From positions 1-48,305 of IMG/VR virus record IMGVR_UViG_3300032157_000017: a stretch of 48,305 bases of DNA. One strand, written 5' to 3'. The translations under genes and the position numbers were made by a program. Positions 9,702-48,305 of the stretch are shown one piece after another (the first letter of the stretch is position 1; every line of letters begins with the position of its first letter). The DNA comes from a virus. The notes below the pieces were generated by a model. It made no database searches. It had not been told where the DNA came from and worked only from the letters and a program-made list of their open reading frames with translations.

Positions 9702-10130
9702 TCAGAACGGAATGTCGTCACCGTCGAACGACTCGGCGGGCCCATCCTCGGGCTCGCCGCGGCCGTTTCTGGAGCTGCGTGCGCTGCCCTTGCCGCCGCC
9801 AGCGCTGCCGTTCACGATGACATCGTTCGCGACGACCTCGGTCTTGTAGCGCTTGACCCCCTCGCGGTCTTCATAGCTCGAGGTGCGTAGGCCCCCCTCG
9901 ATGAAGACCCGATCGCCCTTGCGCACGAGCTTGCCGAGCGCCTCCGCGCGCTTGCCCCAGACGACCACCGTGTGCCACTCGGTGCGCTCCTTACGCTCCT
10001 TGCCCTTATCCAGATAGGTCTCTGTCGTGGCCAGGCGCATGTTGAGCACGGCCTGCCCGCCCGCCGTCATGCGTAGCTCCGGATCGGCGCCGAGGTTTCC
10101 GAGTAGCATCACACGGTTGAGTCCGTTCAT
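9702..10130 (-). CDS. ssb: Single-stranded DNA-binding protein
   Basis: 142 aa from the internal ATG 10130 (AAGGAG upstream). OB-fold signature NRVMLLGNLGADPELR...TEWHTVVVWGKRAE, a Gly-rich linker and an acidic tail DGDDIPF. Confidence 0.9.
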   Translation of the reverse strand: MNGLNRVMLLGNLGADPELRMTAGGQAVLNMRLATTETYLDKGKERKERTEWHTVVVWGKRAEALGKLVRKGDRVFIEGGLRTSSYEDREGVKRYKTEVVANDVIVNGSAGGGKGSARSSRNGRGEPEDGPAESFDGDDIPF

Positions 10131-10143
10131 CGGTGGTATCTCC

Positions 10144-10347
10144 TTACGCAGCTTTGGGTGGCTCGGGCGTTGGCTCGTGCCACATGCGCATGTAGATACC
10201 AGGAACCGCGTCGCATGGGCTCTGGCAGAGGTAGCAGGGCTGCCAGCGCTCACCCGGGGCGAGCGCCGTCACGCGCACCGGCTCTCGCTCGGGACCGTTC
10301 AGCTTGCGAAAGCAGCCGATACAACACGTGCTGTTTTGCCAGCTCAC
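10144..10347 (-). CDS. Cys-rich small protein (67 aa)
   Basis: GTG 10347 in a GTGA overlap (read). STCCIGCFRK...CYLCQSPC. Confidence 0.55.
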   Translation of the reverse strand: MSWQNSTCCIGCFRKLNGPEREPVRVTALAPGERWQPCYLCQSPCDAVPGIYMRMWHEPTPEPPKAA

Positions 10348-14405: not shown

Positions 14406-14722
14406 GGCGCCTCCTTTTCGAGGCCATCGGCGATCATGCGCAGGCGCTGGGCGAGCTTGCGGAGGCAGCCGCGCGAGATTTCGTTGCCATCGGTGAGCGA
14501 GGCGCCGAAGGCGACCGGCAGCGGGCCATCGTCACCGACCACGAACGAGGCCCCGACCAGCACGACGGCGCGGAGGGCGGAGGCCTGTCTGGATTCGCCG
14601 GGGATGGTGACGCCGATGAGCTGCCGGGCGTGTTCGGAGAGCAGCTCGACCAGGTCGGATTGCGTGACGCCGGGCGCGACGGAGACGCCGGGAGGGAGGA
14701 CGGGGCCCATGGTGTCGTTCAT
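14402..14722 (-). CDS. Hypothetical protein (106 aa), tandem paralog of 14064..14405
   Basis: Track ORF with an ATGA overlap. See the paralog alignment for 14064..14405. Confidence 0.7.
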   Translation of the reverse strand: MNDTMGPVLPPGVSVAPGVTQSDLVELLSEHARQLIGVTIPGESRQASALRAVVLVGASFVVGDDGPLPVAFGASLTDGNEISRGCLRKLAQRLRMIADGLEKEAP

Positions 14723-14970
14723 TTCGAGGCCCTGCCTTTTGCGGTGAGTCTCGGGCGGATGATGGTGACGGGTTTCATCGATAGGTGACCTTTGGCTTGG
14801 AACTGACGGATGAATTGATGGGCGGAGGAGTGGCTCTTGCCGAGGGCTTCGGCGAACTCTCTCACCGTGGGGCTCTCGCCGCCGTTTTTCTCACAGAGCT
14901 TGCGATAGATGTCGAGGGCGTGTTGTTGCGCGCTCGTGAGGTTCATGTTCGGGAGGGGTTCATTGGGCAT
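14719..14970 (-). CDS. LexA N-terminal-domain-like winged-helix repressor with no peptidase domain (83 aa); first gene of the leftward early operon
   Basis: LTSAQQHALDIYRKLCEKNGGESPTVREFAEALGKSHSSAHQFIRQFQAKGHL matches the LexA DNA-binding-domain pattern (LT.RQ..vl.fi....G.pPt.rEia..lG..S......hl..L..kG.i). AAGGA lies 7 nt upstream of the ATG. Confidence 0.7.
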   Translation of the reverse strand: MPNEPLPNMNLTSAQQHALDIYRKLCEKNGGESPTVREFAEALGKSHSSAHQFIRQFQAKGHLSMKPVTIIRPRLTAKGRASK

Positions 14971-14980
14971 GCAGGTATCC

Positions 14981-15028
14981 TTACTGATGTGGACAAGTCA
15001 TGCTAGAGTGAGACAAGTCAATATGCAA
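14981..15028. promoter_or_regulatory. Overlapping divergent sigma70-like promoters with two GACAAGTCA repeats (candidate lysis/lysogeny switch)
   Basis: Plus strand: TTACTG (14981-86)-N17-TAGAGT (15004-09). Minus strand: TTGCAT (15028-23)-N17-TAGCAT (15005-00). GACAAGTCA at 14992-15000 and 15012-15020. The region is locally AT-richer. Confidence 0.55.
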
Positions 15029-15229
15029 TGTCCCTCTGCGTCACCCACACCCGCCGCCCGTCCCCGTCCATCCCCTCCTTCCCGCCCCGAGCCACGTACC
15101 GAAATGTGGCGGGGCGCGACACGCACCCTATACACTTTCGACACGGGGTGTCTACATGTCGACGCGGTTGGACGTCTGGGGACGCAGACGGACGCTATCG
15201 GCGCCAGGACGGCGTCAGAGGAGGCCAGG

Positions 15230-15586
15230 ATGGGCGGAGAGAGACCAGAGGGTCGGGCGAAGTACCTGCGGGTGCGGCCGGGGGAAGGTGTGGGCAATGG
15301 TGCGGCAGAGAACGACACGACGCCTGCGTTCACGGTGACGCGGGGGGAGCTCCGGGCGTTGGTGGCCGAGGCCGTCGCCGAGGCGCTCGAAGCAGAGCGG
15401 CCGGGGCCGCCGGCGCTGCTCACGCGCCAGCAGCTGGCGAGCGTGTTCGGCTGCAGCCCGAGCCTCATCGACAAGTTCTTGCGGCAGGGGCTGCCGTGCA
15501 TTCGGCTCGGCGACAGCCCGAGGTTTCAGGTCGAGGCTGCGCTCGAGTGGCTGCGCTCGGGCGAGCGCAAGGCAGGTGGGGCGTGA
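15230..15586 (+). CDS. Excisionase/MerR-type HTH protein (118 aa), Xis-like by position
   Basis: Internal ATG 15230 with GAGGAGG 5-6 nt upstream. C-terminal LLTRQQLASVFGCSPSLIDKFLRQGLPCIRLGDSPRFQVEAALEWL fits the excisionase-family HTH pattern. Confidence 0.65.
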   Translation: MGGERPEGRAKYLRVRPGEGVGNGAAENDTTPAFTVTRGELRALVAEAVAEALEAERPGPPALLTRQQLASVFGCSPSLIDKFLRQGLPCIRLGDSPRFQVEAALEWLRSGERKAGGA

Positions 15587-15765
15587 GCCCCGAGCAGGCG
15601 CGCGCGGTGCTGAAGCGCGAGGGCTGGAACTTCCTCGACCTGTTCGGACTGGTCGAGGCCTTCGCCGAGCTGACGGACGGCGGGCTCGACGCGAGGAGTC
15701 CTCGCGTGCGCGTGGTCATCAAACGGCTACCGCTGCGCAAGCGGACGAAGAAGGTGAAGCCGTGA
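15583..15765 (+). CDS. Hypothetical small basic-tailed protein (60 aa) directly upstream of int
   Basis: GTG 15583 in a GTGA overlap (read). SPEQARAVLKREGWNFLDLFGLVEAFAELTDGG...KRTKKVKP. Confidence 0.55.
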   Translation: MSPEQARAVLKREGWNFLDLFGLVEAFAELTDGGLDARSPRVRVVIKRLPLRKRTKKVKP

Positions 15766-17423
15766 CCGAGAAGCGTGGACCCGGTCGGCCCCGCACGGCC
15801 ACGCCGAAGCGCACGAAGGAGGGCCACTCGGCGCGCGTGTGGGTCGAGTGCGAGGGCGAGAAGGTGCGCACGACGGTGAAGCTCGGCACGAAGAGCCGAA
15901 TCGTGGCGCGGGCGCGCTCCAAACGCGTGCTCGCGGGGGAGGCGCCGGAGCTCGTGGCGGAGAAGAGCGAGAGCTTCGAGAGCGCGGCGCGCCGGTGGCT
16001 CGAGGCGAGCGCGGTGAAGGATCGGAAGCGGATGCTCGGGCGCCTGTCGAACCACGCCTTCCCGGTGATTGGGCAGATCCCGGTGAGTGAGCTGACGAGC
16101 GTGCACATCTTCGACGTGCTCGAGGACGTGGCGGGCAAGGTCGGGGGCTGGACGGGCAGCGTGCGCAACGTGCGCGACGCGATCAGCAAGGTGCTCGGGC
16201 TCCTCGTCGCGCGCCGGGTGCTGGACGTGAACGAGGCGCTGCGGATCAAGCTCAAGGGCAAGGACTCGCTCGGGGGCAAGCGCCTGCGCAAGGTCCGCCC
16301 GCCCCGAGCGGTGCTCACGGATGGGGAGTTCGAGCCGTTCCTCGCGTGGCTGGTGGTGGAGACGGAGCATGCGCACCCGGGCCGGGCGCGCCGGGCGCTC
16401 GAGGATGTGACGCTCTACTTTTCGGCGCGCGTGTTCGGGATGCGGTCGAGCGATGCGTTCTCGTGGCGGTGGGAGATGATCGAGCTCGGCGCGTTTGGCG
16501 ACGCGTACGTGCCGCGGCAGAAGACGGAGGGGCACCTGCTCGACGACGAGGACGAGGCCGAGGACGAGGCGTTGGTGCTCGAGCGGTGGCGGGACGAGCC
16601 GCGTGCGGCGATCCCCGAGGGGCTCGCGGGGTGGCTTCGGCTGTGGTGGGAGGCGAGCGGGCGACCCGAGGAGGGGTTCGTGTGGCCGGTGAGGCAGGGG
16701 GCGCGGGCTGGGGGGAAGAGGACGGCGGGGGCCCATGCCTTGCGGCTGCGGCGCCGGCTGTGGCAGGCGGGGGTGAGCCGAGCGCGCCCTGGGGTCACGG
16801 AGGTGAAGAGCCCCGCCGACTGCGTGCTGCAGACGGGCATCGCGCGGCGCATGAGCCCGGTCGACTTCCATTCGTTCCGGCGGGCGGCGGCGACGGCGGC
16901 GGGCAAGGCGGCGGCGGCGGGGCAGCTGAGCCTGCGGGAGGCGATGCTACTGACGCACCACAGCGATCCGGCGGTGTTTGCGCGGTATCAGGCGAGGGAG
17001 GAGCGCATCGTGGTTCCGGAAAGTTCCGTCCCGGCAATAGTGGCAGCGCCGGAGGCATTATCCCGAGTGGTTAAACACAGTCGGCAGCCAAAAACGGCTG
17101 TCAGTGAAGGCAAGGAGGCCGAAGTGAGGAGTGGTCCACCAACTTCTGAGGGCATCGATACCCCTGTTTTTAAGCCGTTTTCGCCTACGGCGAGTACCCC
17201 CGTAGGCGTCGTACAACCCCATAAAACGACCGACTGCCATTATTCGCTGCCAGTATTCGAGAGCCTCGCCGAGGTGCTCGAGTTCGCCGTGCAGCTCGCC
17301 ATGCGCGAAGGCGACATGAGCAGCGCGAAGGCGCTCCTCGACGTCGCTGAACGTCGCCGCGCTACCTTGCCCGACAACGTCCGACCCCTCGCACCGTCAG
17401 CGCGCAAGGGAGGCAAGCCGTGA
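15762..17423 (+). CDS. int: Tyrosine recombinase / phage integrase (553 aa)
   Basis: GTG 15762 in a GTGA overlap (read); the track ORF starts earlier at 15576. Catalytic-type motifs ARVFGMRSSD (Arg), HSFRR (H-x-x-R) and THHSDPAVFARY (His...Tyr). About 140 aa follow the Tyr. Confidence 0.85.
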   Translation: MTEKRGPGRPRTATPKRTKEGHSARVWVECEGEKVRTTVKLGTKSRIVARARSKRVLAGEAPELVAEKSESFESAARRWLEASAVKDRKRMLGRLSNHAFPVIGQIPVSELTSVHIFDVLEDVAGKVGGWTGSVRNVRDAISKVLGLLVARRVLDVNEALRIKLKGKDSLGGKRLRKVRPPRAVLTDGEFEPFLAWLVVETEHAHPGRARRALEDVTLYFSARVFGMRSSDAFSWRWEMIELGAFGDAYVPRQKTEGHLLDDEDEAEDEALVLERWRDEPRAAIPEGLAGWLRLWWEASGRPEEGFVWPVRQGARAGGKRTAGAHALRLRRRLWQAGVSRARPGVTEVKSPADCVLQTGIARRMSPVDFHSFRRAAATAAGKAAAAGQLSLREAMLLTHHSDPAVFARYQAREERIVVPESSVPAIVAAPEALSRVVKHSRQPKTAVSEGKEAEVRSGPPTSEGIDTPVFKPFSPTASTPVGVVQPHKTTDCHYSLPVFESLAEVLEFAVQLAMREGDMSSAKALLDVAERRRATLPDNVRPLAPSARKGGKP

Positions 17424-18044: not shown

Positions 18045-19117
18045 GGCACCAGTACACCCCCGTCTTCCGAGAGTTCACCACCAGCAGCATGTGGGCCGAG
18101 ACGCCCGCCACGCGCTGCGTCTGGCTGTACCTGCTCTTGCACGCCGACCCCGAGGGCTTCGTCCCCGGCACCGTGCCGGGCCTCGCCGTCGCCGCCAACG
18201 TCGCGCTCGACGACACCCGCTCCGCCGTCGAGAAGTTCATGGCGCCCGACCCCGACTCGAACAGCCAGAGCCACGAGGGGCGCCGCCTCCAGAAGGTCCC
18301 CCACGGCTGGCGCATCCTGAACTTCGAATACTGGCGCGAGCTCGCCCGACGCGAGGCCGAGAAGGCGCGCAAGCGGCGCTACATCAACGCGCGGCGTCGC
18401 GCCGAGAACGACACCGCCCCTCTCGAACCCGAAGATGTAGACGCACTGTCGACGGACGTAGACGCGAGTAGCGAAAGGCTAGACGCACCCAAACCGAAAC
18501 CCAAACCGGATCTTTCTTCATCTTCATCATCAACGGGCAGCGACGCACAGGTCGAACCTGTGGAGAGCCGCTCGCTCGTGCTCAAGGAACTGCCCGCCGA
18601 CATGGTGCTGCCCGAGCACCTCGCCGACGAAGCGCGCCAGGCGGGCGTCGCCGACCCGCACCGCTGGTTCGGTAAGCTCAAGGAGGGTCCGATCGGCGGC
18701 GAGCGCGGCGTGCTCGCTCACCAGCTCGAGAGCTACCTGCGGCGCCTGTTCGGTAGCTGGCGAACCTGGGAAGAGACGGAGCGGGCGAAGGATGCCCAAC
18801 GCTCCGCCGCTGCGGCCTCTCCCAGGCGCTTCGGAGACAAGCCCGTCCCCACCGACCCCTTCGACCCCGAGCCCCGCCACGAGGCGTTTGCGCGCCAGCA
18901 CGGACTCGACCTCGAAGCTCTGCTGAAGGGTGTGCTCGCTGACCACCCGCAACCACTCGTTGCCCCGCTCTCGAGACGCGCGGTGCTCGGCGAGCGGCTC
19001 ACGGTCGCCGCCAAGCAGAAGAAGATGGGGCAGCCCGTGACCGGCAAGCTCACCGCCGCGCAGACCGCCGCCTGGGGCCCCGTGCCTCCCGGCGGCGCCA
19101 TCCCGGAGGTCGCGTGA
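18041..19117 (+). CDS. Putative replication initiator/organiser (358 aa); function tentative
   Basis: ATG 18041 in an ATGA overlap (read). N-terminal domain MRHQYTPVFREFTTSSMWAE...VWLYLLLHADPEGFV, then an acidic/Ser-rich linker. It lies next to the J-domain and recombination genes. Confidence 0.45.
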   Translation: MRHQYTPVFREFTTSSMWAETPATRCVWLYLLLHADPEGFVPGTVPGLAVAANVALDDTRSAVEKFMAPDPDSNSQSHEGRRLQKVPHGWRILNFEYWRELARREAEKARKRRYINARRRAENDTAPLEPEDVDALSTDVDASSERLDAPKPKPKPDLSSSSSSTGSDAQVEPVESRSLVLKELPADMVLPEHLADEARQAGVADPHRWFGKLKEGPIGGERGVLAHQLESYLRRLFGSWRTWEETERAKDAQRSAAAASPRRFGDKPVPTDPFDPEPRHEAFARQHGLDLEALLKGVLADHPQPLVAPLSRRAVLGERLTVAAKQKKMGQPVTGKLTAAQTAAWGPVPPGGAIPEVA

Positions 19118-19698
19118 CCACGCCCATCGAAGCCTGCCCCCTCACGTGGCCCGAAGGGTGGCCGCGTCGCCCCGACCATCGGCGGGAGTCGTCTCGGTAC
19201 GAGGTCACCTTCCTGAAAGCTCGAGACCATCTCGTCCGGCAGATCGAACTCGCTGGAGGCAGGCATGTCGTCATCAGTACGAACGTCCCGCTGCGGCGCG
19301 ACGGCCTGCCGCTCGCGAACATGAGCGAGCCGAAGGACCCCGGCGTCGCCGCGTACTGGACGGACCGCAAGAACAAGCCGCGCGTCATCGCCTGCGATCA
19401 CTGGCGCAAGGTGCGCGACAACCTCCGGGCCGTGGGGCTCACCGTCGAGGCGCTCCGGAGCATCGAGCGCGCCGGGGCGACGGAACTGCTCGAGCGGGCC
19501 TTCAGCGGGTTCGCGGCGCTGCCGCCGCCGGCTGACCATTGGGGCATACTCGGGCTCGAGCGAGGAGCGAGTCGCTCGGCGGTTACCCAGCGCTACCACG
19601 AACTCGCCGGGCGCAATCACCCAGACAAGGGCGGATCCAACGAGCAGATGGCGCGCATCAATGCCGCTTACCGCCAAGCCATTCAGGAGGTCGCGTGA
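19114..19698 (+). CDS. J-domain (DnaJ-like) protein with an unknown N-terminal domain (194 aa)
   Basis: Track ORF with GTG in a GTGA overlap (read). C-terminal HWGILGLERGASRSAVTQRYHELAGRNHPDKGGSNEQMARINAAYRQA contains the HPD tripeptide. Confidence 0.8.
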   Translation: MTTPIEACPLTWPEGWPRRPDHRRESSRYEVTFLKARDHLVRQIELAGGRHVVISTNVPLRRDGLPLANMSEPKDPGVAAYWTDRKNKPRVIACDHWRKVRDNLRAVGLTVEALRSIERAGATELLERAFSGFAALPPPADHWGILGLERGASRSAVTQRYHELAGRNHPDKGGSNEQMARINAAYRQAIQEVA

Positions 19699-19949
19699 GC
19701 GGGCCGACGCCGCCGCAGAAACGGGTGCTGAAGTTCATCGCGCAGTCGGTGCGCGACCGGGGGTTCCCCCCGACGCTGCGCGAGATATGCGACCACATCG
19801 GCGCGACCAGCACCCACGCCGCCTATCAACACGTCCTCGGCCTCGTCCGGCGAGGGCTCATCACGAAGTCAGCAACGAAGAGCCGCGGGCTCGCGCTCAC
19901 CGAAGCGGGGCGCGACGAGCTCGTCTACCTCAAAGCGGAGGGCGCATGA
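19695..19949 (+). CDS. Second LexA N-terminal-domain-like winged-helix protein with no peptidase domain (84 aa)
   Basis: GTG 19695 in a GTGA overlap (read). PPQKRVLKFIAQSVRDRGFPPTLREICDHIGATSTHAAYQHVLGLVRRGLITKSATKSRGLAL aligns by eye with E. coli LexA residues about 5-70. Confidence 0.7.
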   Translation: MSGPTPPQKRVLKFIAQSVRDRGFPPTLREICDHIGATSTHAAYQHVLGLVRRGLITKSATKSRGLALTEAGRDELVYLKAEGA

Positions 19950-20245
19950 TGCCCACGATCCGAGTCCACCCGATCCACACGAGCTACTCGTTCCAGAACG
20001 CGAAGAAGGGCGAGGTCTTCACCATCGAACTCGACGGGCTGCGTTGGCCGCTCGAGCTGCGGCAGCGGCCGCCGCGCGTGCGCCTGCTCGAAGACGGCAA
20101 GCGCTGCTCGGCGCCGGTGCTCTGCGAGATACTCGACCCCTGGCCGAACGCCCCCTCCTACTACCCGCCCGAATGGGCCCCCGGCGCCGGGCCCGCCCCA
20201 TTCGGGAGCCTCTACGAGCAGTGCCCCTATTGGGGGCGGCGTTAG
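19946..20245 (+). CDS. Hypothetical protein (99 aa)
   Basis: Internal ATG 19946 (ATGA overlap). MMPTIRVHPIHTSYSFQNAKKGEVFTIELDGLRWPLEL... Confidence 0.6.
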   Translation: MMPTIRVHPIHTSYSFQNAKKGEVFTIELDGLRWPLELRQRPPRVRLLEDGKRCSAPVLCEILDPWPNAPSYYPPEWAPGAGPAPFGSLYEQCPYWGRR

Positions 20246-20276
20246 TGCGTCTCTACATTGACAAGGTCAATCACTC

Positions 20277-20546
20277 ATGGGACAAGACAGGAAAGCCGTG
20301 AACCAGTTCCGCGAGCACAAGGTGAGAGCGCAGTTCCAGCGGAAGCTCGAACAGCTGCACTTCGAGCTCAGCGTCGAGAGCCCCCGCCGCGTGCTCGACT
20401 ACCTCATCGACCACCTCGAAGACCTCCACGCTCAGCTCACCCCCACGGTGCTGAGCGAGTCGTTCAAGGACCAGCTCGAACGCGCCAAGACGCGCGTCTC
20501 CAAACGCCACAACCTCCGCCTCATCCAAGGACCCCGCCATGTATGA
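20277..20546 (+). CDS. Hypothetical helical protein (89 aa; more likely 82 aa from GTG 20298)
   Basis: Track ORF. No SD precedes ATG 20277, whereas AGGAA lies about 5 nt before GTG 20298. Confidence 0.65.
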   Translation: MGQDRKAVNQFREHKVRAQFQRKLEQLHFELSVESPRRVLDYLIDHLEDLHAQLTPTVLSESFKDQLERAKTRVSKRHNLRLIQGPRHV

Positions 20547-22266
20547 ATCCATCGCCCTCGTCGATGTCTCGTGTCTCTTCAAGCGCACGTTCGAAGCGAA
20601 CCCGAACGCGGGCGCGCGCAACACCCTCGACCAGATCGTCTCTATCGAGGGGCGCGTCGGCCACGTCATCCTCTGCCTCGACGCCCCACCCTACTCGCGC
20701 AAGGACATCTTCCCCGACTACAAGGCGCACCGCGAGGAGCCGACGACCACCGAGGTCTACCAGAAGCGCGAACTCTACCAGATGCTCAAGGACCGCGACT
20801 ACCCGATGGCGCGCCTGAAGGGCGCCGAGGCCGACGACGTCATCGCGACGCTCGCGCGCATCTACGGCGAGACCACGGCCACGGTCTGGCTCGTCGGCGC
20901 CGACAAGGATCTCGCCCAGTGCGTGACCGAGAACGTGCTGCAGCTCGTCCCCTCCCAGGGCTCGAGGGTGGAGCACTTCCGCGGCCCCGTGCAGGTGAAG
21001 GAGAAGTTCGAGGTCACGCCCGACCAGATGCCGCTCTATCTCGCATTGGTCGGTGACAAGAGCGACAACATCCCCGGCGTCAAGGGCATCGGTCCGGTGA
21101 AAGCCGCCGGGCTCATTGGCGAGTTCAAGACGCTGGTCGGCATCGCCGAGAACCTGAACCGCATCGGCGGCCAGGTGGGCAAGGCGCTCGCCGAGGGCTG
21201 GGAGCAGCTCGTCCTGTCGCTCAAGCTCACGACGCTCGACGCGCGGCTGCCGCTCGATCACCAGGCGCTGCTCGCGAAGGGAGAGCCCAAGGCGCCCGAG
21301 CCGCCGGCGCCGAAGGAGGAAGAGTTCGAGGGCTTCACGGGCAACGAGACTCCGATGCCGGCAAGCATGCCCGATCACGATTACCCCGAGGTTACCGGGT
21401 ACGAGCCCGGTGAGCGCGAGCGGAGCGTCGCCGCCGAGCGCGCGAAGCTCGACGTGCTGACGAAGCCCGAGCCCATCATCGGCAAGGACCCTCGCGCCGA
21501 CGAGTTCCTGCGCCAGGAGGCCGCTGCCCGCGAGCAGATGCGGCAGTCGAGCACGCGCGCCGCCGAGGACCTGCACGAGCACGAGCACAAGCGCGGGCGC
21601 AACGCCGAGCGCGTCGCCGAGGAGGCGCACGAGCGCGAGCAGCAGCAGGAGGAGCAGTGGCGCCGCGAGCAGCGCGCCGAGCAGGCGGCGACGAGCAACG
21701 CCGCCCAGCCGCCGCTCGCTCCCGCGCCTCGCCCCACCGTCGTGGCGATGCCTGGCCCCGCCAAGGCCACCCTGCGCGGGCTCGCGCTTCTTCGTGCCCC
21801 GTTCGAGAGCCGCCAGATCAGCAAGCTCCCGAAGGGCTCGAAGGAGCAGAACAATTGCCCCTACAACGAGAAGCGGAGCTGCAACGTGTGCGGCGGCTTC
21901 CATCACCCGAAGATGATTCACCTCGACTACGTCGGGCACGCCGCGCTCACCGACCGCCTGCTCGAGGCCGACCCGCTCTGGTCGTGGGAGCCGATGTGCT
22001 TCGCCCCCAATGGCCTGCCGCTCTTCGACCAGACCGGCGGGCTCTGGATTCGTCTCACGGTCTGCGGCGTCACGCGCCTCGGCTACGGGCACGCGCCGAG
22101 CAAGCAGTTTCAAGAGCCGGGCGCGCGCGAGAAAGAGATCATTGGAGACGCCTTGCGCAACGCCGCCATGCGCTTCGGCGCCGCGCTCGACCTTTGGCAC
22201 AAGGGCGACGACCTGCATGACGAGGACTGGGACGCGGCCGCCGCCTGGCAGGGGGTGGGCGCGTGA
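20539..22266 (+). CDS. Fusion protein: N-terminal FEN-type 5'-3' exonuclease (PIN + H3TH) plus a C-terminal Rad52/Sak-like single-strand annealing domain (575 aa)
   Basis: N-terminal: GAEADDVIATLA, GADKDLAQC, LVGDKSDNIPGVKGIGPVKAAGLI (Pol I 5'-exo/FEN signatures). A charged linker of about 180 aa follows. C-terminal: LRAPFESRQISKLPK...IHLDYVGHAALTDRLLEADPLWSWEP...GLWIRLTVCGVTRLGYGH...KEIIGDALRNAAMRFGAALDLW (Rad52-like SSAP pattern, by recollection). It is a single uninterrupted ORF. Confidence 0.75.
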   Translation: MYESIALVDVSCLFKRTFEANPNAGARNTLDQIVSIEGRVGHVILCLDAPPYSRKDIFPDYKAHREEPTTTEVYQKRELYQMLKDRDYPMARLKGAEADDVIATLARIYGETTATVWLVGADKDLAQCVTENVLQLVPSQGSRVEHFRGPVQVKEKFEVTPDQMPLYLALVGDKSDNIPGVKGIGPVKAAGLIGEFKTLVGIAENLNRIGGQVGKALAEGWEQLVLSLKLTTLDARLPLDHQALLAKGEPKAPEPPAPKEEEFEGFTGNETPMPASMPDHDYPEVTGYEPGERERSVAAERAKLDVLTKPEPIIGKDPRADEFLRQEAAAREQMRQSSTRAAEDLHEHEHKRGRNAERVAEEAHEREQQQEEQWRREQRAEQAATSNAAQPPLAPAPRPTVVAMPGPAKATLRGLALLRAPFESRQISKLPKGSKEQNNCPYNEKRSCNVCGGFHHPKMIHLDYVGHAALTDRLLEADPLWSWEPMCFAPNGLPLFDQTGGLWIRLTVCGVTRLGYGHAPSKQFQEPGAREKEIIGDALRNAAMRFGAALDLWHKGDDLHDEDWDAAAAWQGVGA

Positions 22267-22469
22267 AGGCTTCGTCGGTCACGAGCACGAAGGTCAGCGT
22301 GCACATATCGGAGAAGGAACTCGTCGAACTCGTGCGCGCGGGGGGGATTCACGTCCCCGCCGACATGTCCGTCGACTGCTATGCGGCGCCGTTCGATACG
22401 GAGTTCGACCCCGACGGCGGGGGCATCATCGTGGAGTGGTCCGAAGAGCATGCCCCGAAGCAAGGCTGA
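22263..22469 (+). CDS. Hypothetical acidic protein (68 aa)
   Basis: Track ORF with GTG in a GTGA overlap (read). Confidence 0.6.
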   Translation: MKASSVTSTKVSVHISEKELVELVRAGGIHVPADMSVDCYAAPFDTEFDPDGGGIIVEWSEEHAPKQG

Positions 22470-22797
22470 AGAATGTCTCGCGGCCGGGCTCGAAGCAAAC
22501 GCTCTACCGGGCTGGGATCTGACGAGGGACTACTCTTTCGACAGATCCCGGCGCTGGACGTTCGACTTTGCGTTCCCGAGCCAGAAGCTGGCGCTCGAAG
22601 TCGACGGCCGCTACCACCGGACGTTCAAGGGGCAGAGGAACGACAGCGAGAAGTTCAACGAAGCGACACGGCAGGGGTGGCGGATGCTCCGGCTCCCCGC
22701 CGACCGGGTCTCGCCAAAACGAGCGGAGGAGTTCGTGGGGCTGGTGCTCGAGGTCTTGTGCTGTCCCCCGAGCTCAGCGCGCGAATCGAACGAATAG
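22450..22797 (+). CDS. PD-(D/E)XK nuclease of the Vsr/DUF559 type (115 aa)
   Basis: Internal ATG 22450. FDFAFPSQKLALEVDGRYH...ATRQGWRMLRLPA fits the aDF..p...lviEvDG..H ... GW.vlR pattern. Confidence 0.6.
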   Translation: MPRSKAEECLAAGLEANALPGWDLTRDYSFDRSRRWTFDFAFPSQKLALEVDGRYHRTFKGQRNDSEKFNEATRQGWRMLRLPADRVSPKRAEEFVGLVLEVLCCPPSSARESNE

Positions 22798-22901
22798 CGC
22801 GCGCCGAAAAGCTCTCGGTCGAGAGCGTGCTCGCTGATGCCGTCCAGCTCTTCTGGGTGCAGTGGGCAGCGCGGCGCCGCTTGCCGCCAGGCGAGTGGTA
22901 G
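22758..22901 (+). CDS. Possible ribbon-helix-helix-like small protein (47 aa)
   Basis: GTG 22758 (read) within track ORF 22473..22901. LSPELSARIERIARAEKLSVESVLADAVQLF. It overlaps the nuclease 3' end by 40 nt. Confidence 0.35.
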   Translation: MLSPELSARIERIARAEKLSVESVLADAVQLFWVQWAARRRLPPGEW

Positions 22902-23093
22902 TTACGAAGAGGGCGGGCGCCGCAGCGCGACGGTCGGCGCCCGCGAGCGCGCCGCCCTCTCGTCCTTCCGCATGGCGGCGCTGAGCAGCTCGAGCCGCCG
23001 CTTTGCCTTGCGCCGATCGTTGAGCTCGTCGGCGCGGATGGCGACGCCGAGCAGCGCGTCGACCACGCTCCAGATGGCTTTCAGCACGCTCAC
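22902..23093 (-). CDS. Small lysis-associated membrane protein (63 aa); holin or spanin candidate
   Basis: GTG 23093 in a GTGA overlap with the endolysin stop (read). Hydrophobic N-terminus VLKAIWSVVDALLGVAI followed by a highly charged tail. Confidence 0.45.
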   Translation of the reverse strand: MSVLKAIWSVVDALLGVAIRADELNDRRKAKRRLELLSAAMRKDERAARSRAPTVALRRPPSS

Positions 23094-23557
23094 GACTTGA
23101 CCCTCTGGAAGTGCGGTCCGTCGTCGAGCGGCCACTGCTTCTTCCCCCGGATGCGCTGGTAGCGCTCGACGTAGAGCGCGCGCTCGCCCTCGAAGTCGCG
23201 CGGATCGAGCTCGACGAGCTCCATGTCCCAGACCCGACCCCACACGAGACGGACCCCGAGCTGCCCGCTCGCTTCCAGCATCGCGGCGGCGACCTCGTTA
23301 CAGAGCGCGTGCTCCCAGCGCAAGACGCCGTCGACGTACGGCACGAGGTCGACCGCGTCGCCCGTCAGGTGGTAGCTGTCGAGCGTGCGGCTCGCGCCGG
23401 TGGCGAAGAGCTTTCGCTGCCGCTCAAACGAGCGCAGCCCCTCGTGCACCGCGAAGTCGATGTCGGTGAGCAGGATCGCCCGGCGCACGACCGCGACGAG
23501 CGACTCGTGCACCCCCACGAGCGCCGCCTCGCTCTTCTGTCCCAGCCGGAAGCTCAC
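23090..23557 (-). CDS. Endolysin, peptidase M15 (VanY / L-Ala-D-Glu peptidase-like) (155 aa)
   Basis: GTG 23557 in a GTGA overlap (read). SYHLTGDAVDL matches S.H..G.A.D, with downstream His residues (WEH, GPHF). The rest of track ORF 23090..24100 is off-frame-type sequence. Confidence 0.75.
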   Translation of the reverse strand: MSFRLGQKSEAALVGVHESLVAVVRRAILLTDIDFAVHEGLRSFERQRKLFATGASRTLDSYHLTGDAVDLVPYVDGVLRWEHALCNEVAAAMLEASGQLGVRLVWGRVWDMELVELDPRDFEGERALYVERYQRIRGKKQWPLDDGPHFQRVKS

Positions 23558-24036
23558 GGCAGCGCCCCGATGATCGCCTCGACGAGCGCTCGGTACTTCG
23601 GGAACGCCTCGACAACGAGAGGCGCGGCGACGAGGACGAGGCCGAGCAAGCCTCCCCCTCGCGCCACTTTCTGGCCGAGCGACGCCTCGACCTTGTCGAG
23701 CCGCGGCGCGTGGTCGCTCTTCACGAGCGCGAGCAGCGAGTCGAGCCGCGCGTTCGTCTCGTCGCCGGTCGCGCGCTGAAGCGCGAGCTCCTGGTGGAAG
23801 AGCTCGAAGCGGCGGTTCATGGTCTGACCGAAGCCGTCGAGCTGGAGCGCCATCTTTCTCTGCAGGTCGAGGATGTCTCTCGTCGTCTCCGCCGGCGTGC
23901 GCACGAGCTTGCTGAATGGCTCGCGCGGGATTCGCCGCGTCAGCTCCACCGGAGCCACCGGCACCTCCACCACCTCGTGGTCGTCGAGCTCCGACGGGCG
24001 TCGGAAGCGCGGCGGGGGCTTCTGCTCGTCCGTCAT
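23554..24036 (-). CDS. Tail-anchored coiled-coil membrane protein (160 aa); lysis-cassette member (holin or spanin-like)
   Basis: Track ORF with C-terminal helix GGGLLGLVLVAAPLVVEAF. It is the first gene of the endolysin cluster. Confidence 0.55.
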   Translation of the reverse strand: MTDEQKPPPRFRRPSELDDHEVVEVPVAPVELTRRIPREPFSKLVRTPAETTRDILDLQRKMALQLDGFGQTMNRRFELFHQELALQRATGDETNARLDSLLALVKSDHAPRLDKVEASLGQKVARGGGLLGLVLVAAPLVVEAFPKYRALVEAIIGALP

Positions 24037-25554: not shown

Positions 25555-28500
25555 TCATAGATCGACATCGTCCCGGCAGAGCAGGCGCCATCGCGTGCTG
25601 GTCCCGTCGTACCAAGCGAGCGCCATTTCGCCCGGCTTGATGTGGCGGTCGGTGACGAGCCCCGCGAAGCAGTTCGCAGCGCTGGAGCTGCCCGTGGCCT
25701 CGAGCAGAATGACGACGTCGCTCGAGGCGTGCGCGTTCACGAGCAGCACGACCTGCCCGGTCGCAGCCGCGATCATGCCCGTCAGCGGATTGACCGGGCC
25801 AGTGAAGCGCACGACGTTCACAGTGCCGATGTTGAGGTTGTTCGCCGCCGTCGCCGCGCTGGTGAGAACGCTCGTGAACCCGACGCTGCTCTGCAGCCGC
25901 GTCGGGCTGTTCGCGTCGATGGTCGTGCCGGCGGCGAGAACGGTGGAGGTGTTCGCCGTGAGCGTGACCGAGCTGCCGCTGCTCGTTATCCCCACCGCTC
26001 CGCTCACGTTCACCGTGTGGGCCGAGCCCGTGAACGAGTGCGCCCCCGTCCAGGTCACGGCCTCACCGTCGATGATGGCCACGACCTCCGTCGGCGTGAG
26101 CGCCGTCGGCACGCCCGTGCCCGCCCCCTCCGCTCGCCCGAGAACGCGCGATTGGGCAATCGTCGCGAAGTCCGTGAGCGGCACCGGCGCCGTCGCGAGC
26201 TTGCGGTCGACGTTGGTGTCGTCGCGAAAGTACGGGTTCGTCGGCGCGTCGTCCTTGGCAAAGTACTCGGACTGACCCGTCGCCATCGACGTACCCGCCG
26301 CGCGCTCCATCACGCTCAGCGTGTCGCGCACGGGCGTATCGCGCAGCGCCCACGCCGAGACCGGCGTGCTGTAGCCGAGGTCCACGCTGCTATTGGGCGC
26401 GTATAGGGTGAAGTCGAGCGCGCGGGGGTTGATGATCTCGCTGCCCGCCGGAGCCCCCGCGTCGGCGTGCGTGAGCACGACGTGCCGGAGAAAACTCACC
26501 CCGCGCTTGACGAGACGGATGAACCCCCCGGCGTTGCCGCCCGTCTGCGTAATGCTCCGGATGATCACGTTGCCGGTCGCGTTCGGGGTGATCTCCACCC
26601 AGTGCGTGCGCGAATCGAGCGTGAGATCGTAGGTGCCCGGCGCGAGCGTGAACGTCTCGGCGAACTCGAGACGGAGGTTCTCGCCGACCTCCGCGCCCGT
26701 GAGATCGACGGGGTCACCCGTGCCGGCGTCGATCTGCCGCCCCTTCACCGTGCCGGCGGCCATGTTCGCGAGCTTCGCGTTCGAGACCTGGTCGTCGCCG
26801 ATGCCCGCGGTCGCGATGCTCCCGAACCCGAGCGCCGTGCCCGAGCGCCGGAGCACGTCCCCGTCTGAGCCCGCGCCAATGTCGGCGACGTCGCCCGTCG
26901 AGTTCGCGGCGCGACCAATCACCGTGAGCGCCGCGCTCTGGCGGATCTTCGTGTTCGTGACGGCATTGTTCGCGATGCCGCCCGTCGCCACGGTGCCGAA
27001 GCCGAGCACGCTGCCGCTCTCGCGCAGCACCGCATCGCTCGCGGCCGACGCCGAGATGTCTGCCGGATCGCCCGTCGAGTTCGCGCTCCGGCCGATGACC
27101 GACAGCGCCCCGCTGTTGCGCAGCAGCGTGTTCGAGATGCTGTCGGCGATGACGTTCGGGGTCACCGTGACTTCGTCGTTCGCCGAGACATCCGCGTTCG
27201 TCCACGCGACGCTCGTGCCGTCGACGAAGTTGATGCGGCTACGGGAAGCGCCGAGCCCGGAGGAGTTCGTCCGGTAGTACGCCTTCGTCCCGCCATCGGT
27301 GAACCAGAAGTTGCCCGTCACCCCGTGGACCAGGATGACGCCATCACCCGGGTAGAGCCGCAGCGTCGCGCCCTTCGGGGTCACGATGCGGTTACCGCCC
27401 GTCGAGACGCTGAAGTGTATGATGTCGACGACGATGCCCGAACCGATAGCTGCGCCGTTGGCCACGAACACCCGCCGTCCCGTACTCGCGCTGAGCTGCA
27501 CCATGCCGCTCAAGGTGGCGTTCGCCGTAATGCTCAAGCTGTCGGCGAGCGGATCGAGCGCGTAGTCGGTGAGCGTGCCGCCCGTCGCTTCGACCTGTCG
27601 GTTGGAGAAGCGGATGATCTCGGCAATCTCCGCGCCCGTGAGATCCACCGGCACCCCCGTGCCGGCGTCGATCTGCCGGCCCTTCACCGTGCCCGCCGCC
27701 ATGTTCGCGAGCCCCGCGTTCGCCACGGTGCCGAAGCCGAGCACGCTGCCGCTCTCACGCAGCACGGCGCCCGACGCGGCCACGGCGCTGATGTCCGCCG
27801 GATCGCCCGTCGAGTTCGCGCTCCGGCCGATGACCGACAGCGCCCCGCTGTTGCGCAGCAGCGTGTTCGAGATGCTGTCGGCGATGACGTTCGACGTGAT
27901 GGTCACCTCGTCGGAGGCGGCCACGTCGGCGTTGCTCCACGCAACACTCGTCCCGTCGACGAAGTTCACCCGCGAGCGCGACACGCCGAGCCCGGAAGAG
28001 TTCGTGCGATAGAGCGACTTGGTCGCCTCGAGCGAGCACCACGTCGTGCCCACCGTCCCGTACAAGAACTCGATAGAGTCGCCCGGGTAGAGGCGCAGCG
28101 CGGTCGCCTTCGGCAGGAGGAACCGGTTGATGCTGCTGCTCAGCGCCGAGAACTGGAGCAGGTCGACCGTGACGCCTGACCCCGCCGCCGCGCCGTTGCT
28201 GATGACGAGCCGCCGCCCCGAGCTCCCGTTCGTAATGCCGCTGATGACGGTCGTCGCCGTGAAGTTCAGGACGTCTACCAGGGAGCTCAATACATAGTTG
28301 TTGAGCGTGCCCCCGACCGCGTCGGTCGAGACGTTGCTGAAGCGGATGATCTCGGCGACCTCGCTGCCGATGAGATCGACGGGGTCACCGGTGCCGGCGT
28401 CGATCTGCCGGCCTTTCACGGTGCCCGCAGGCATGTCGGCGAGCTGCGCGTTCGTCACCGCGTTGAGGACGATGCTCGTGACGTTGCTGTTCTGCGCCGC

Positions 28501-29499
28501 CTGGACGTCGCCCGTCAGCGCCTCACGGATGAAGGTCTTGCCCGTGTTCTCGAAGATGACCGAGTTGCTGCTCAGCAGCCCGAACGACGTATAGATGGGG
28601 CGCGCCGTCGCCCCCGACACGTTCCCGACGAAACGCCCGTCGGAGATCTCCGGCATGTCGACGAGCGTCCAGTTACGCCATTGGATGGCGAGGCGCGTGC
28701 TCGCGACCCGCAGGAACACGCTCTCGCCCGGGAACGTCCCGGTCCCCGGCACGTTGATGCCGGCGACGTTCGTGCCGAGCACGCCCGCTCGCCCGAGCAC
28801 CGAGAGGTCATTGAGCGCGATCGCGACCGGCGCGGCCGTCGAGCTCGTCGGGTTACCGAGCACGCTCTGCGCAGTGATGGGCGTGAGGCTACCGGGCGGC
28901 ACCGTCGTGCCCGTGCTCGCGACCCCCGGGATGAACCCCATCACGATGCCGCCGCCGTCGACGAACGGGTCGTCGGTGCTCGACTCGATGGGCGTCACAC
29001 CAAGGTCCCAGTAGGTGCCCTGGTCGGTCATCGAATTGAGGTCGAATCGGATGAAGCGCGCAGGGTTCACCGCGTCGGAGAGCGTCACGACACCGAGCGG
29101 CGTCGTCGACCCGCCCGACATCACCTCGAGCCACGGGCGCGCATCCCCGAGTCGCGCGTTCGTCTCGCTCACGCGCACCGTCGTCGCCGTGTTCTGCGGC
29201 GTCGCGTCGAGTCGCACGAACCCCGTCGTCGGATCGGCGTTCGCCGTGTTCGTCGAGAAGTAGTACTGGAGCGGGTTCGCGCTCGGCGCGTTGTCGACGA
29301 CCGGCAGGTAGACGTCATTGAGCCGATCGCGGGTGCTCCGCACCGCCGGCACGAGCTCCCGATTGATGTAGTCGAGCAGGTTCGGCAGCGTCGGGTTGCC
29401 GCTGAACGGCCGCAGCGCACGGGCCACTCCCGTGCGCTGGTTCTGGTAGCCCGCCTGGCGCTGCTCCTCGGTGAGCTGCCGGTCGTCGCAATCCGCCAT
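25555..29499 (-). CDS. Tail fibre / receptor-binding protein with internal tandem duplications (1314 aa)
   Basis: Track ORF and the largest gene, at the end of the virion module. Repeated modules GTVKGRQIDAGTG.PVDL.G.E (x3) and ALSVIGRSANSTGDPADIS...VLRESGSVLGFG (x3). Confidence 0.75.
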   Translation of the reverse strand: MADCDDRQLTEEQRQAGYQNQRTGVARALRPFSGNPTLPNLLDYINRELVPAVRSTRDRLNDVYLPVVDNAPSANPLQYYFSTNTANADPTTGFVRLDATPQNTATTVRVSETNARLGDARPWLEVMSGGSTTPLGVVTLSDAVNPARFIRFDLNSMTDQGTYWDLGVTPIESSTDDPFVDGGGIVMGFIPGVASTGTTVPPGSLTPITAQSVLGNPTSSTAAPVAIALNDLSVLGRAGVLGTNVAGINVPGTGTFPGESVFLRVASTRLAIQWRNWTLVDMPEISDGRFVGNVSGATARPIYTSFGLLSSNSVIFENTGKTFIREALTGDVQAAQNSNVTSIVLNAVTNAQLADMPAGTVKGRQIDAGTGDPVDLIGSEVAEIIRFSNVSTDAVGGTLNNYVLSSLVDVLNFTATTVISGITNGSSGRRLVISNGAAAGSGVTVDLLQFSALSSSINRFLLPKATALRLYPGDSIEFLYGTVGTTWCSLEATKSLYRTNSSGLGVSRSRVNFVDGTSVAWSNADVAASDEVTITSNVIADSISNTLLRNSGALSVIGRSANSTGDPADISAVAASGAVLRESGSVLGFGTVANAGLANMAAGTVKGRQIDAGTGVPVDLTGAEIAEIIRFSNRQVEATGGTLTDYALDPLADSLSITANATLSGMVQLSASTGRRVFVANGAAIGSGIVVDIIHFSVSTGGNRIVTPKGATLRLYPGDGVILVHGVTGNFWFTDGGTKAYYRTNSSGLGASRSRINFVDGTSVAWTNADVSANDEVTVTPNVIADSISNTLLRNSGALSVIGRSANSTGDPADISASAASDAVLRESGSVLGFGTVATGGIANNAVTNTKIRQSAALTVIGRAANSTGDVADIGAGSDGDVLRRSGTALGFGSIATAGIGDDQVSNAKLANMAAGTVKGRQIDAGTGDPVDLTGAEVGENLRLEFAETFTLAPGTYDLTLDSRTHWVEITPNATGNVIIRSITQTGGNAGGFIRLVKRGVSFLRHVVLTHADAGAPAGSEIINPRALDFTLYAPNSSVDLGYSTPVSAWALRDTPVRDTLSVMERAAGTSMATGQSEYFAKDDAPTNPYFRDDTNVDRKLATAPVPLTDFATIAQSRVLGRAEGAGTGVPTALTPTEVVAIIDGEAVTWTGAHSFTGSAHTVNVSGAVGITSSGSSVTLTANTSTVLAAGTTIDANSPTRLQSSVGFTSVLTSAATAANNLNIGTVNVVRFTGPVNPLTGMIAAATGQVVLLVNAHASSDVVILLEATGSSSAANCFAGLVTDRHIKPGEMALAWYDGTSTRWRLLCRDDVDL

Positions 29500-47515: not shown

Positions 47516-48305
47516 GCGGCTCCTCTCTGTTGCTGGTTGGCGGGCGGCGCGGGGCGCGGCTGCGCCGGCGCGGCAGGTCCCGGGGGCGGGCCTCCTGCGC
47601 CGGGAGGTGCTCCGGGCGGAGCCATGCCGGGGGGCGGCATGGGCGGGCTCGTCGGCACGCCGAATTGCTGCGGGGGCGGGGGCGGCGCGCCGAGGAGCCC
47701 GATGAGGTCGTAGCGATTACGCGCCTCGAGGCTCTTCGAGATGACCGCGTACTTGAAGGCGAAGTTCTGCGCGAGCTCGGGCACGGCGTTCGGCATCTGG
47801 ACGAGCGCATCGGCCTCGCTGATGCGTTGGGAGGTGCTCGTGAACTTCAGGTCGGCGGAGAACTCGACGTCGTAGGGGCGGTCGTACATGTCACGCCCGA
47901 CGGAGAACGTCTGCTGCCCCATGGCGCCGACGGCGGGGTCGTGATTGTTCACGCTGAACCACTCGACGTCCTCGAGGAAGATCGCGTTCAGAAGGGCGTT
48001 GTTGATGAGCACCTGCGTGACGAAGTCGGCGTACTTCTGGGTGGGGACGCTGAGCATCTTCGTCGCCTGCTCGATGCGGGCGCTGATGCCCTGCGCGGTC
48101 TCGCCGCTCTTGCCGCTCTCGCCCGAGAGCACCTCCGGCGTGTTGCTCACCGTGTTGCCGAAGCGGACGAGCATCTCGATGAGCTGCAGGAACTGGGGGT
48201 TGGCCTGCCCGAACTCGAGCGGGACGATGTCCTTCGAGAGATCCACCGAGCCTTGCACGGTGTGGATCTTCCCCGGCGCGAGGCGGATGGTGTCGCCGTC
48301 CTGGA
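47512..48305 (-). CDS. Portal protein, C-terminal part (continues from 1..1595 through the terminal overlap), ending in a Pro-rich tail of about 58 aa
   Basis: Track ORF 47512..48258 is the same frame. The frame stays open to 48305 and is continuous with the minus frame of bases 128-1595. Confidence 0.8.
   Translation of the reverse strand, partial: QDGDTIRLAPGKIHTVQGSVDLSKDIVPLEFGQANPQFLQLIEMLVRFGNTVSNTPEVLSGESGKSGETAQGISARIEQATKMLSVPTQKYADFVTQVLINNALLNAIFLEDVEWFSVNNHDPAVGAMGQQTFSVGRDMYDRPYDVEFSADLKFTSTSQRISEADALVQMPNAVPELAQNFAFKYAVISKSLEARNRYDLIGLLGAPPPPPQQFGVPTSPPMPPPGMAPPGAPPGAGGPPPGPAAPAQPRPAPPANQQQRGAA
48179..48305. repeat. Terminal direct repeat, identical to 1..127
   Basis: Read directly. 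Confidence 0.95.

Follow-up and report, generated by a model that had tools for sequence, protein, structure and literature searches.

The window analysed here, the 48,305 nucleotides of IMG/VR virus record IMGVR_UViG_3300032157_000017, carries at 20539-22266 on the plus strand a complete gene whose 575-aa product joins a flap endonuclease (FEN) domain, a long tether and a Rad52-like annealase domain in a single open reading frame (ORF). We propose that the protein is a single-chain exonuclease-annealase recombinase, a covalent version of the exonuclease-annealase pairs, and we give this reading a probability of roughly 0.6. The biology of nucleases that work together with annealases is familiar. 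Notable here are the natural single-chain design, the FEN partner and the documented exchange of Rad52-like and RecT cassettes.

The nuclease half (aa 1-245; 20539-21273, plus strand) was recognised by Pfam, PDB phmmer searches, alignment and AlphaFold2 (AF2) as a 5'-3' exonuclease/FEN of the Pol I type, composed of a resolvase-like N-domain and an H3TH/SAM-fold domain. Pfam PF02739 (5_3_exonuc_N) covers aa 25-157 (1.5e-21; 77.3 bits against a cut-off of 34.3) and PF01367 (5_3_exonuc) covers aa 159-242 (4.5e-22; 78.8 bits against a cut-off of 40). The two domains stand in the correct order and each lies above its gathering score. The closest PDB sequences found by phmmer are Pol I of M. smegmatis (6vde, 2.8e-23) and Taq Pol I (1.3e-20); further matches are Xni/ExoIX, T5 FEN (~3e-12) and mycobacterial FenA. 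Among 35 homologues the acidic residues of the two metal sites, D9, D48, E97, D99, D100, D122, D124, D173 and D176 are invariant. The same is true for Y61, K62 and R65 of the YKxxR motif, the arch lysine K76 and the H3TH motif GDKSDNIPGVKGIG, which follows the pattern GDxSDNxPGVxGIG. The EADD, DKD and GD.SDN.PG motifs align with those of Taq and M. smegmatis Pol I, and the AF2 model of this half has a predicted local distance difference test score (pLDDT) of ~95. Judged by these residues, the N-terminal domain is an intact Pol I-type FEN nuclease with a complete catalytic set and looks competent. A first-pass annotation of the window had described a Pol I 5'-exo/FEN N-terminus; both Pfam domains above threshold and the position of its quoted motifs in invariant columns bear this out.

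The C-terminal domain (aa 410-556; 21766-22206, plus strand) was assigned to the Rad52 superfamily of single-strand annealing domains by phrog_3290, AF2 and Foldseek. The family phrog_3290, named 'single strand annealing protein', matches aa 413-569 with an E value of 2.8e-49 and 168.6 bits. An AF2 model built on a 41-sequence alignment reached a pLDDT of 84 and a predicted template modelling score (pTM) of 0.72. When it was compared with the PDB by Foldseek, the top 26 matches were all yeast Mgm101, the N-terminal domain of human RAD52 or Sak of the staphylococcal phage 80a, mostly with a probability of 1.00 (0.80-0.99 for some lower ranks) and E values from 8e-4 to 1.4e-1. Query TM scores were 0.26-0.49, the best being ~0.45-0.5, at an identity of 13-18%. 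Among predicted viral structures (BFVD) the Foldseek matches include 'DNA repair protein Rad52/59/22' and 'SAK3'. In an hhalign comparison of the family alignment with RAD52 28-183 (the sequence used is identical to 1h2i) the match was marginal, with E 0.02, a probability of 2.4% and 40 columns. It pairs GYG...REKEIIGDALRNAAMRFGAAL with the GYG... segment of RAD52; the family signature is GYG followed by KE..D.L[KR].A..FG.AL. Read from this marginal alignment, R540 corresponds to RAD52 K152 and R545 adjoins R156, and both arginines are invariant in the family. RAD52 K152 and R156 have a role in the binding of single-stranded DNA. Modelling thus places the C-terminal domain in the Rad52/Sak/Mgm101 annealase fold, whose core is a beta-hairpin plus beta-beta-beta-alpha, and the assignment as an annealase draws on this predicted structure, on the PHROG family name and on the replacement by RecT described below.

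Near the N-terminal end of the annealase core lies a Cys/His cluster, C440-x7-C448-x2-C451-x3-H455-H456 (21856-21906, plus strand), which was defined from alignments. All five residues are invariant or nearly so in fused and stand-alone members of the family. Gp67 of Mycobacterium phage Eish, a minimal member (L081, 4001-4585), is missing a 29-residue segment with the cluster, and pZL12.29c of Streptomyces phage ZL12 (L082, 3959-5212) has a four-cysteine ribbon, CxxC...CxxC, at the same position. Presence in the window, absence in Eish and replacement in ZL12 mark the loop as an insertion point for a small metal-binding element. The cluster is probably a zinc-binding insertion in the Rad52-like core, and on this comparison the loop is a hot spot of gain and loss. 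The earlier description of an inserted Cys/His cluster was right in that the cluster is real and an insertion relative to Eish gp67, but it is found throughout the family and is not peculiar to the window protein. The domain ends in a short acidic/aromatic tail (DDLHDEDWDAAAAWQGVGA; 22207-22263, plus strand), seen in the alignments and predicted with low pLDDT. This tail stands in place of the variable C-terminal region of 60-130 aa that stand-alone family members possess.

Between the two domains lies the tether (aa 246-409; 21274-21765, plus strand), in which AF2 and the alignment distinguish a disordered acidic and proline-rich stretch, a motif, a charged helix and a Pro/Ala-rich stretch. 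In the full-length AF2 model aa 252-316 and 385-409 have a pLDDT below 50, which predicts disorder. A 66-residue alpha-helix rich in E, R and Q is predicted for aa 318-383 (21490-21687, plus strand; pLDDT 66-84, about 80), possibly a single-alpha-helix spacer or a coiled coil. The motif, P-E-P-I-I-G-K-D-P-R-A-D-E-F-L in the window protein (aa 312-326; 21472-21516, plus strand), came from the homologue alignment. Its consensus among the 35 homologues is P-x-P-I-I-G-K-D-P-R-A-D-E-F-L with G315, D317, P318 and A320 invariant. It is common to both annealase types: G[KTAE]DPxA occurs in 37 of 45 FEN-Rad52-like and in 47 of 76 FEN-RecT proteins. The tether holds the conserved motif IIGKDPRADEFL. It measures ~165 aa, against a median of 169 (range 80-217 aa) for the linkers of homologues. 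A charged low-complexity linker of about 180 aa had been described at first; a linker exists, but it is shorter than that and contains a conserved motif and a predicted long helix.

The strongest argument that the C-terminal modules are equivalent in function is the replacement of the annealase domain in situ by RecT in sister phages. The FEN-RecT phages L083 and L084 have a gene order in common with the FEN-Rad52-like phage L085 and the window. It begins with an integrase-like gene, a small ORF, a sigma-70 region-4 protein, a protein of ~360 aa and a LexA-type winged helix-turn-helix (wHTH) protein, and continues with two small ORFs, the fusion, another small ORF and a DUF559 endonuclease. 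In blastn comparisons homology between the window and L085 is unbroken over 19951-24030 (74.6% identity). Homology to L084, which carries RecT, covers 19951-21593 (75%) and 22458-22901 (72%), with none over 21594-22457. The exchanged unit, as delimited by the flanking homology and the gap, is a cassette at 21594-22457 (plus strand) that takes in the annealase domain together with the latter half of the tether before it and the small ORF after it.

This small ORF (22263-22469, plus strand; 68 aa) is coupled to the fusion by a GTGA overlap and co-varies with the annealase type. It is 54% identical to the 67-aa ORF of L085 and unrelated to the 90-aa ORF that follows the RecT fusion in L084. No PHROG match was found for it. 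It may be an annealase-specific accessory. The DUF559 gene (22381-22797, plus strand; Vsr-like endonuclease fold) overlaps the end of the 68-aa ORF and is kept downstream of the fusion in relatives of the Rad52-like and the RecT type alike.

Protein comparisons give the same picture. Over aa 1-319 the proteins P0005 (Rad52-like) and P0052 (RecT) are 76% identical, and beyond this stretch they are unrelated; the window protein (P0001) is 65% identical to the RecT-bearing P0038 over aa 1-368. The FEN domain of the window is nearer to that of P0038 (65%) than to that of P0034, which bears a Rad52-like domain (~50%). A neighbour-joining tree built from 113 FEN domains shows the Rad52-like and RecT types intermingled, and Fitch parsimony gives at least 14 changes, a rough number from a tree without bootstrap. 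From these alignments and the tree we conclude that the annealase module has been exchanged repeatedly between the Rad52-like and RecT types. Repeated exchange suggests that selection acts on annealing and not on mere binding. The simplest account is that strand annealing is what is selected in the C-terminal module, and that both halves of the protein work on a common DNA intermediate.

The annealase family to which the C-terminal domain belongs is large, with at least 7,911 clusters at 90% identity, and has no Pfam annotation. Its members, typically 210-295 aa long, carry the conserved core N-terminally and end in a variable tail. Over aa 404-557 the window protein is 53-56% identical to the genes of the phages Eish and ZL12, while for stand-alone proteins from metagenomes the identity reaches 82%. 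In a GTDB survey with one genome per bacterial species, 80 annealase loci from many phyla were returned. A FEN fusion was present at one of them (L001), in a metagenome-assembled genome of the Thermomicrobiales. Around the other 79 loci no separate FEN gene was found with a FEN hidden Markov model (9,233 ORFs from all 80 loci; available flank up to 8 kb), and among the genes adjoining the annealase genes of Eish and ZL12 no nuclease partner was seen.

Among the top 120 database matches to the full protein, with the C-terminal type assigned by directed BLAST, 76 are FEN-RecT and 38 FEN-Rad52-like proteins; five are stand-alone annealases and one (P0057) appears truncated. Pfam RecT exceeded its gathering threshold in all four FEN-RecT proteins tested. 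An exhaustive search of 1.84 billion representatives at 50% identity yielded hundreds of stand-alone annealase clusters, about 6 clusters with FEN and a Rad52-like domain and about 14 with FEN and linker without a Rad52-like domain. Many fusion proteins sit on contigs of 42-50 kb, a size suggestive of complete phage genomes. On these matches the fusion is conserved across a clade of uncultured phages of ~42-50 kb that are probably temperate.

Deposited phages gave no counterpart: megablast of the fusion gene against them returned no match, and in tblastn searches of 50,697 deposited phage records with the window protein and P0038 none covered at least 80%, all matches being to separate FEN genes or to genes for single-strand annealing proteins (SSAPs). 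Public records label the fusion proteins only '5'-3' exonuclease'. No natural FEN-annealase or exonuclease-annealase fusion is described in the literature searched, including surveys of phage annealases, an absence that is no proof. Nor did term searches in Lopes 2010, the Firmicutes SSAP survey of 2021, the Rad52 structural tree of 2024, Fitschen 2023 and a myxobacterial RecET paper turn up such a fusion. The first-pass annotation had presented the FEN-annealase fusion as an unfamiliar arrangement. It is genuine and conserved and we found no description of it, but it is not unique to the window genome and comes with two types of annealase.

Some fusions appear to have arisen separately. In P0065, P0242, P0243 and P0244 the FEN domain is joined to a Rad52-like domain by unrelated linkers. 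P0244 (L087/L088, 7001-8464) belongs to a ~45-kb phage of a different lineage, has a short unrelated linker, and its gene comes shortly after those for a Toprim primase, a DnaB-type helicase and a sigma-70 region-4 protein. In P0058 (L086, 701-2020) the order is reversed, with the annealase first, then ~30 acidic residues and then FEN. This is a complete ORF in a 2.3-kb metagenomic contig with a DnaA-C-like gene downstream, and it is a single observation, as a dedicated search with P0058 found no second cluster of reverse order. Judged by linker and domain order, the lineages of P0058, P0065, P0242, P0243 and P0244 are independent fusions.

How might such a protein work? The FEN domain would degrade the 5'-ended strand at a double-strand end, or would trim 5' flaps or primers beside an annealed strand. 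The attached annealase would then oligomerise on the 3' strand left single-stranded, where it would probably displace the single-stranded DNA-binding protein (SSB) of the phage or cooperate with it, and would pair this strand with complementary single-stranded DNA. By replacing the non-covalent contact between Exo and annealase known from lambda Exo and Red-beta, the tether would deliver the annealase at the nuclease's site. A likely role would be to repair, circularise or replicate the phage genome through recombination.

Recombination in T7 likewise employs a FEN-family exonuclease, gp6, and an annealing protein, gp2.5. No other recombination exonuclease was recognised among the early-region ORFs scanned in the window. 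The phage's own SSB, which has a DDIPF tip, fits a recombinase. The fused proteins, moreover, are missing the variable C-terminal region of the stand-alone annealases. This fits covalent coupling, since the C-terminal region of Red-beta binds lambda Exo and SSB according to one report (PMC6393309).

Several points weigh against the proposed recombinase. Both activities of the fusion proteins are predictions from sequence and modelled structure. For aa 400-575 Pfam gave no match at E<=1, Rad52_Rad22, Sak/DUF1071, ERF and RecT included. Searches of PDB sequences with the single domain (phmmer) and with a 41-sequence profile returned chance or low-complexity matches and no annealase. The Rad52 assignment therefore stands without sequence-profile support, the hhalign match to RAD52 being marginal; of the Rad52/Sak-type C-terminus claimed at the outset, the predicted fold and the phrog_3290 match held good but a Rad52/Sak/DUF1071 profile match did not. 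Pol I-type 5' nucleases generally prefer nicks and flaps over blunt duplex ends, and given this preference processive resection like that of lambda Exo would not be assured. The idea that FEN is a general partner of the stand-alone annealases was rejected, as among the 80 loci FEN is found only at the fused locus L001. Finally, the primase and DnaB helicase genes next to P0244 would fit a role in replication equally well.

Such a replication role is the best of the alternatives, although we consider it unlikely. The protein would be a replication accessory in which FEN removes RNA primers or 5' flaps of Okazaki fragments, the task that T4 RNase H, T5 D15 and T7 gp6 perform, and in which the annealase acts as an anchor that binds single-stranded DNA at the lagging strand. 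This would suit a FEN domain closest to the 5' nucleases of Pol I, which are mainly primer and flap removers, as well as the position of the P0244 gene after primase and helicase and that of the L086 fusion before a DnaA-C-like gene. It is also in line with the window ORFs scanned, among which no DNA polymerase with a 5' nuclease of its own was recognised. Against this role, both C-terminal alternatives, Rad52-like and RecT, are annealases and not generic SSBs, and a canonical SSB is already encoded by the phage. The repeated swaps between two annealase families suggest selection for annealing itself. The two roles are in any case not mutually exclusive, as T7 gp6 does both.

It is still less probable that the C-terminal domain is no annealase at all, and that the Rad52-like fold serves, for example, as a regulator that binds nucleic acid, an anti-defence decoy or a zinc-dependent binder of DNA ends. 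The fusion would then aim the nuclease at the degradation of host DNA or at the evasion of defence. Besides the want of a Pfam or PDB sequence-level match to a characterised annealase and the hhalign probability of 2.4%, the conserved Cys/His cluster speaks for this explanation; to our knowledge such a cluster is not known in RAD52, Mgm101 or Sak, and no member of the family has been characterised experimentally. On the other hand, the top structural matches are annealases without exception, and sister phages have RecT in the same place; in the marginal hhalign alignment, moreover, the GYG...KE..D.L+.A..FG.AL signature falls on the DNA-binding helix of RAD52.

That the single ORF is an artefact, in which a recent frameshift or a fault of assembly or sequencing fused two adjacent genes, is effectively refuted on the sequence evidence: one relative, P0057 (441 aa), looks truncated or frameshifted past the linker, but G+C at third codon positions (GC3) stays at 0.8 or more in frame across the linker, residues within the linker are conserved, and more than 110 independent relatives (JGI, Logan, ENA and NCBI assemblies) keep a single ORF of 487-633 aa. 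Over the whole fusion ORF GC3 is 0.92 and never falls below 0.80 in any 30-codon window, with G+C at second positions of ~0.44. One uninterrupted ORF is also kept in 35 aligned full-length homologues of 49-81% identity. The steady coding frame and these homologues exclude a frameshift or assembly artefact as far as can be judged from the letters. The coordinates first given for the ORF were thus exact, and the stop or frameshift in the linker that might have split it into two genes was not seen.

The ORF begins with ATG, preceded at ~9-13 nt by an AAGGA Shine-Dalgarno-like motif. Its start overlaps the stop of the preceding ORF (ATGTATGA), and the next ORF starts with a GTG that shares bases with the stop of the fusion (GTGA); these overlaps suggest translational coupling with both neighbours. 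M404, considered as an internal start of translation ahead of the annealase domain, is not conserved and has no Shine-Dalgarno-like sequence upstream. A promoter and terminator scan of 14.5-24.5 kb gave nothing that exceeded shuffled expectation.

The recombinase reading may be extended, more tentatively, to an undescribed class of natural single-polypeptide recombinases in which a ring- or filament-forming annealase core is a swappable cassette and FENs are carried on long tethers. We regard this wider claim as possible but rather doubtful. If it is true, resection or flap-trimming would take place on the same particle as annealing, FEN nucleases, and not PD-(D/E)XK enzymes alone, are natural partners of Rad52-type annealases, and a compact one-gene recombineering tool for high-GC bacteria would be at hand. 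Conserved short motifs of the tethers, IIGKDPRADEFL and EFDPIG..PGA.GP, might serve to bring in a partner from host or phage, for instance SSB or the sliding clamp.

Exonuclease-annealase pairs of phages are the basis of recombineering and a model for the loading of Rad52-type proteins onto resected DNA. The textbook cases, as far as we know, all use a separate exonuclease of the PD-(D/E)XK type. A conserved FEN fusion means that a covalent link, and a nuclease of another family, can serve for the coupling. The exchange in place of Rad52-like and RecT domains offers evolutionary evidence of unusual directness that these two annealase families can stand in for each other in function. For the large annealase family outside the coverage of Pfam (at least 7,911 clusters at 90% identity), the attached nuclease is a Rosetta-stone clue to function. 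A one-gene recombinase from high-GC phages is also a candidate engineering tool where lambda Red and RecET work poorly.

The ends of the window form a perfect direct repeat of 127 nt, with 1-127 identical to 48179-48305. The window is thus a circularly assembled complete genome with a unique length of 48,178 bp. Its G+C content is ~68%, and its phage hallmarks are a large terminase, tail genes, an integrase-like gene and an SSB. The large terminase (1823-3334, minus strand) has less than 30% identity to any deposited phage. The phage is probably temperate, with the integrase-like gene at 15576-17423 (plus strand). The 615-aa product matches only the central Phage_int_M domain (5e-9), no match to a catalytic integrase domain was obtained in the domain scan, and its identity as a functional integrase is uncertain. 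Two small proteins of the LexA N-terminal winged-helix type are encoded at 14719-14970 (minus strand) and ~19700-19949 (plus strand) and match phrog_3502/phrog_362, 'transcriptional repressor'. The gene at 14719-14970 faces a divergent intergenic region (14970-15576), and the two LexA-type wHTH proteins together may form a lysis-lysogeny switch.

The SSB gene (9702-10253, minus strand; Pfam SSB 4.4e-34; tip FDGDDIPF) lies on the strand opposite to the fusion, as the first-pass annotation had it. The longest ORF has an N-terminal extension of 41 codons unlike SSB, and the true start is likely M42 at 10130. From the known interplay of SSAPs and SSBs, this protein is a probable working partner of the annealase.

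At 19114-19698 (plus strand) there is a 194-aa phrog_9210 protein with a C-terminal DnaJ (J) domain; a phage J-domain protein in the early operon is unusual. Repeats were found in two genes elsewhere in the window. The gene at 25555-29499 (minus strand; 1,314 aa) has diverged internal repeats with a period of ~735 nt (families D1-D3), and that at 35297-37495 (minus strand; 732 aa) has three repeats of ~73 nt at 114-120 nt spacing. Both probably encode tail-fibre or receptor-binding proteins.

Among known systems, the stand-alone homologues in phrog_3290, such as Eish gp67 and pZL12.29c of ZL12, are direct sequence relatives of aa 404-557. They are 190-420 aa long, have the core N-terminally ahead of a variable tail, and differ from the window protein in having neither a FEN domain nor a FEN gene nearby. 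No experimental paper on them was found in the literature searched, and their annotation as SSAPs appears to have been made by inference. The N-terminal domain of human RAD52, Mgm101 and Sak of 80a match the predicted fold of the window domain at 13-18% identity. In those proteins the fold is the N-terminal core of a stand-alone protein, whereas in the window it is C-terminal to a nuclease and has the additional Cys/His cluster.

A parallel for the nuclease is offered by T7, where gp6 is paired with gp2.5, and also by T5 D15 and T4 RNase H: here a FEN-family nuclease acts with an annealing protein that binds single-stranded DNA, in recombination and replication. The nucleases of T7, T5 and T4 have the FEN fold and the catalytic residues in common with the window protein, and T5 FEN was among the PDB matches. 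The window FEN is nevertheless nearer to bacterial Pol I (2.8e-23) than to T5 FEN (~3e-12). T7 makes two separate proteins, of which the annealing one has an OB-fold, while in the window they are fused and the partner is Rad52-like.

The lambda Red system (Exo and Red-beta) and RecE with RecT of the Rac prophage resemble the window in combining a 5'-3' nuclease with a Rad52-superfamily or RecT annealase as one module of an early operon. In these systems loading of the annealase is believed to take place on the 3' single strand made by the nuclease, and the sister phages of the window carry a true RecT domain. The nucleases of lambda Red and RecET, however, are PD-(D/E)XK enzymes (YqaJ/RecE/lambda Exo) and that of the window is of the FEN/Pol I type; the neighbouring ORFs that were scanned include no recognisable PD-(D/E)XK exonuclease. 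Moreover, lambda Red and RecET form a non-covalent complex through the C-terminal domain of the annealase, whereas the window has one polypeptide with a tether of ~165 aa and is missing that domain. With a FEN nuclease instead of PD-(D/E)XK and one chain instead of separate subunits, the fusion is not a strict member of the SynExo pairs (lambda Exo/Red-beta, RecE/RecT, Chu/35), although it may well work like one.

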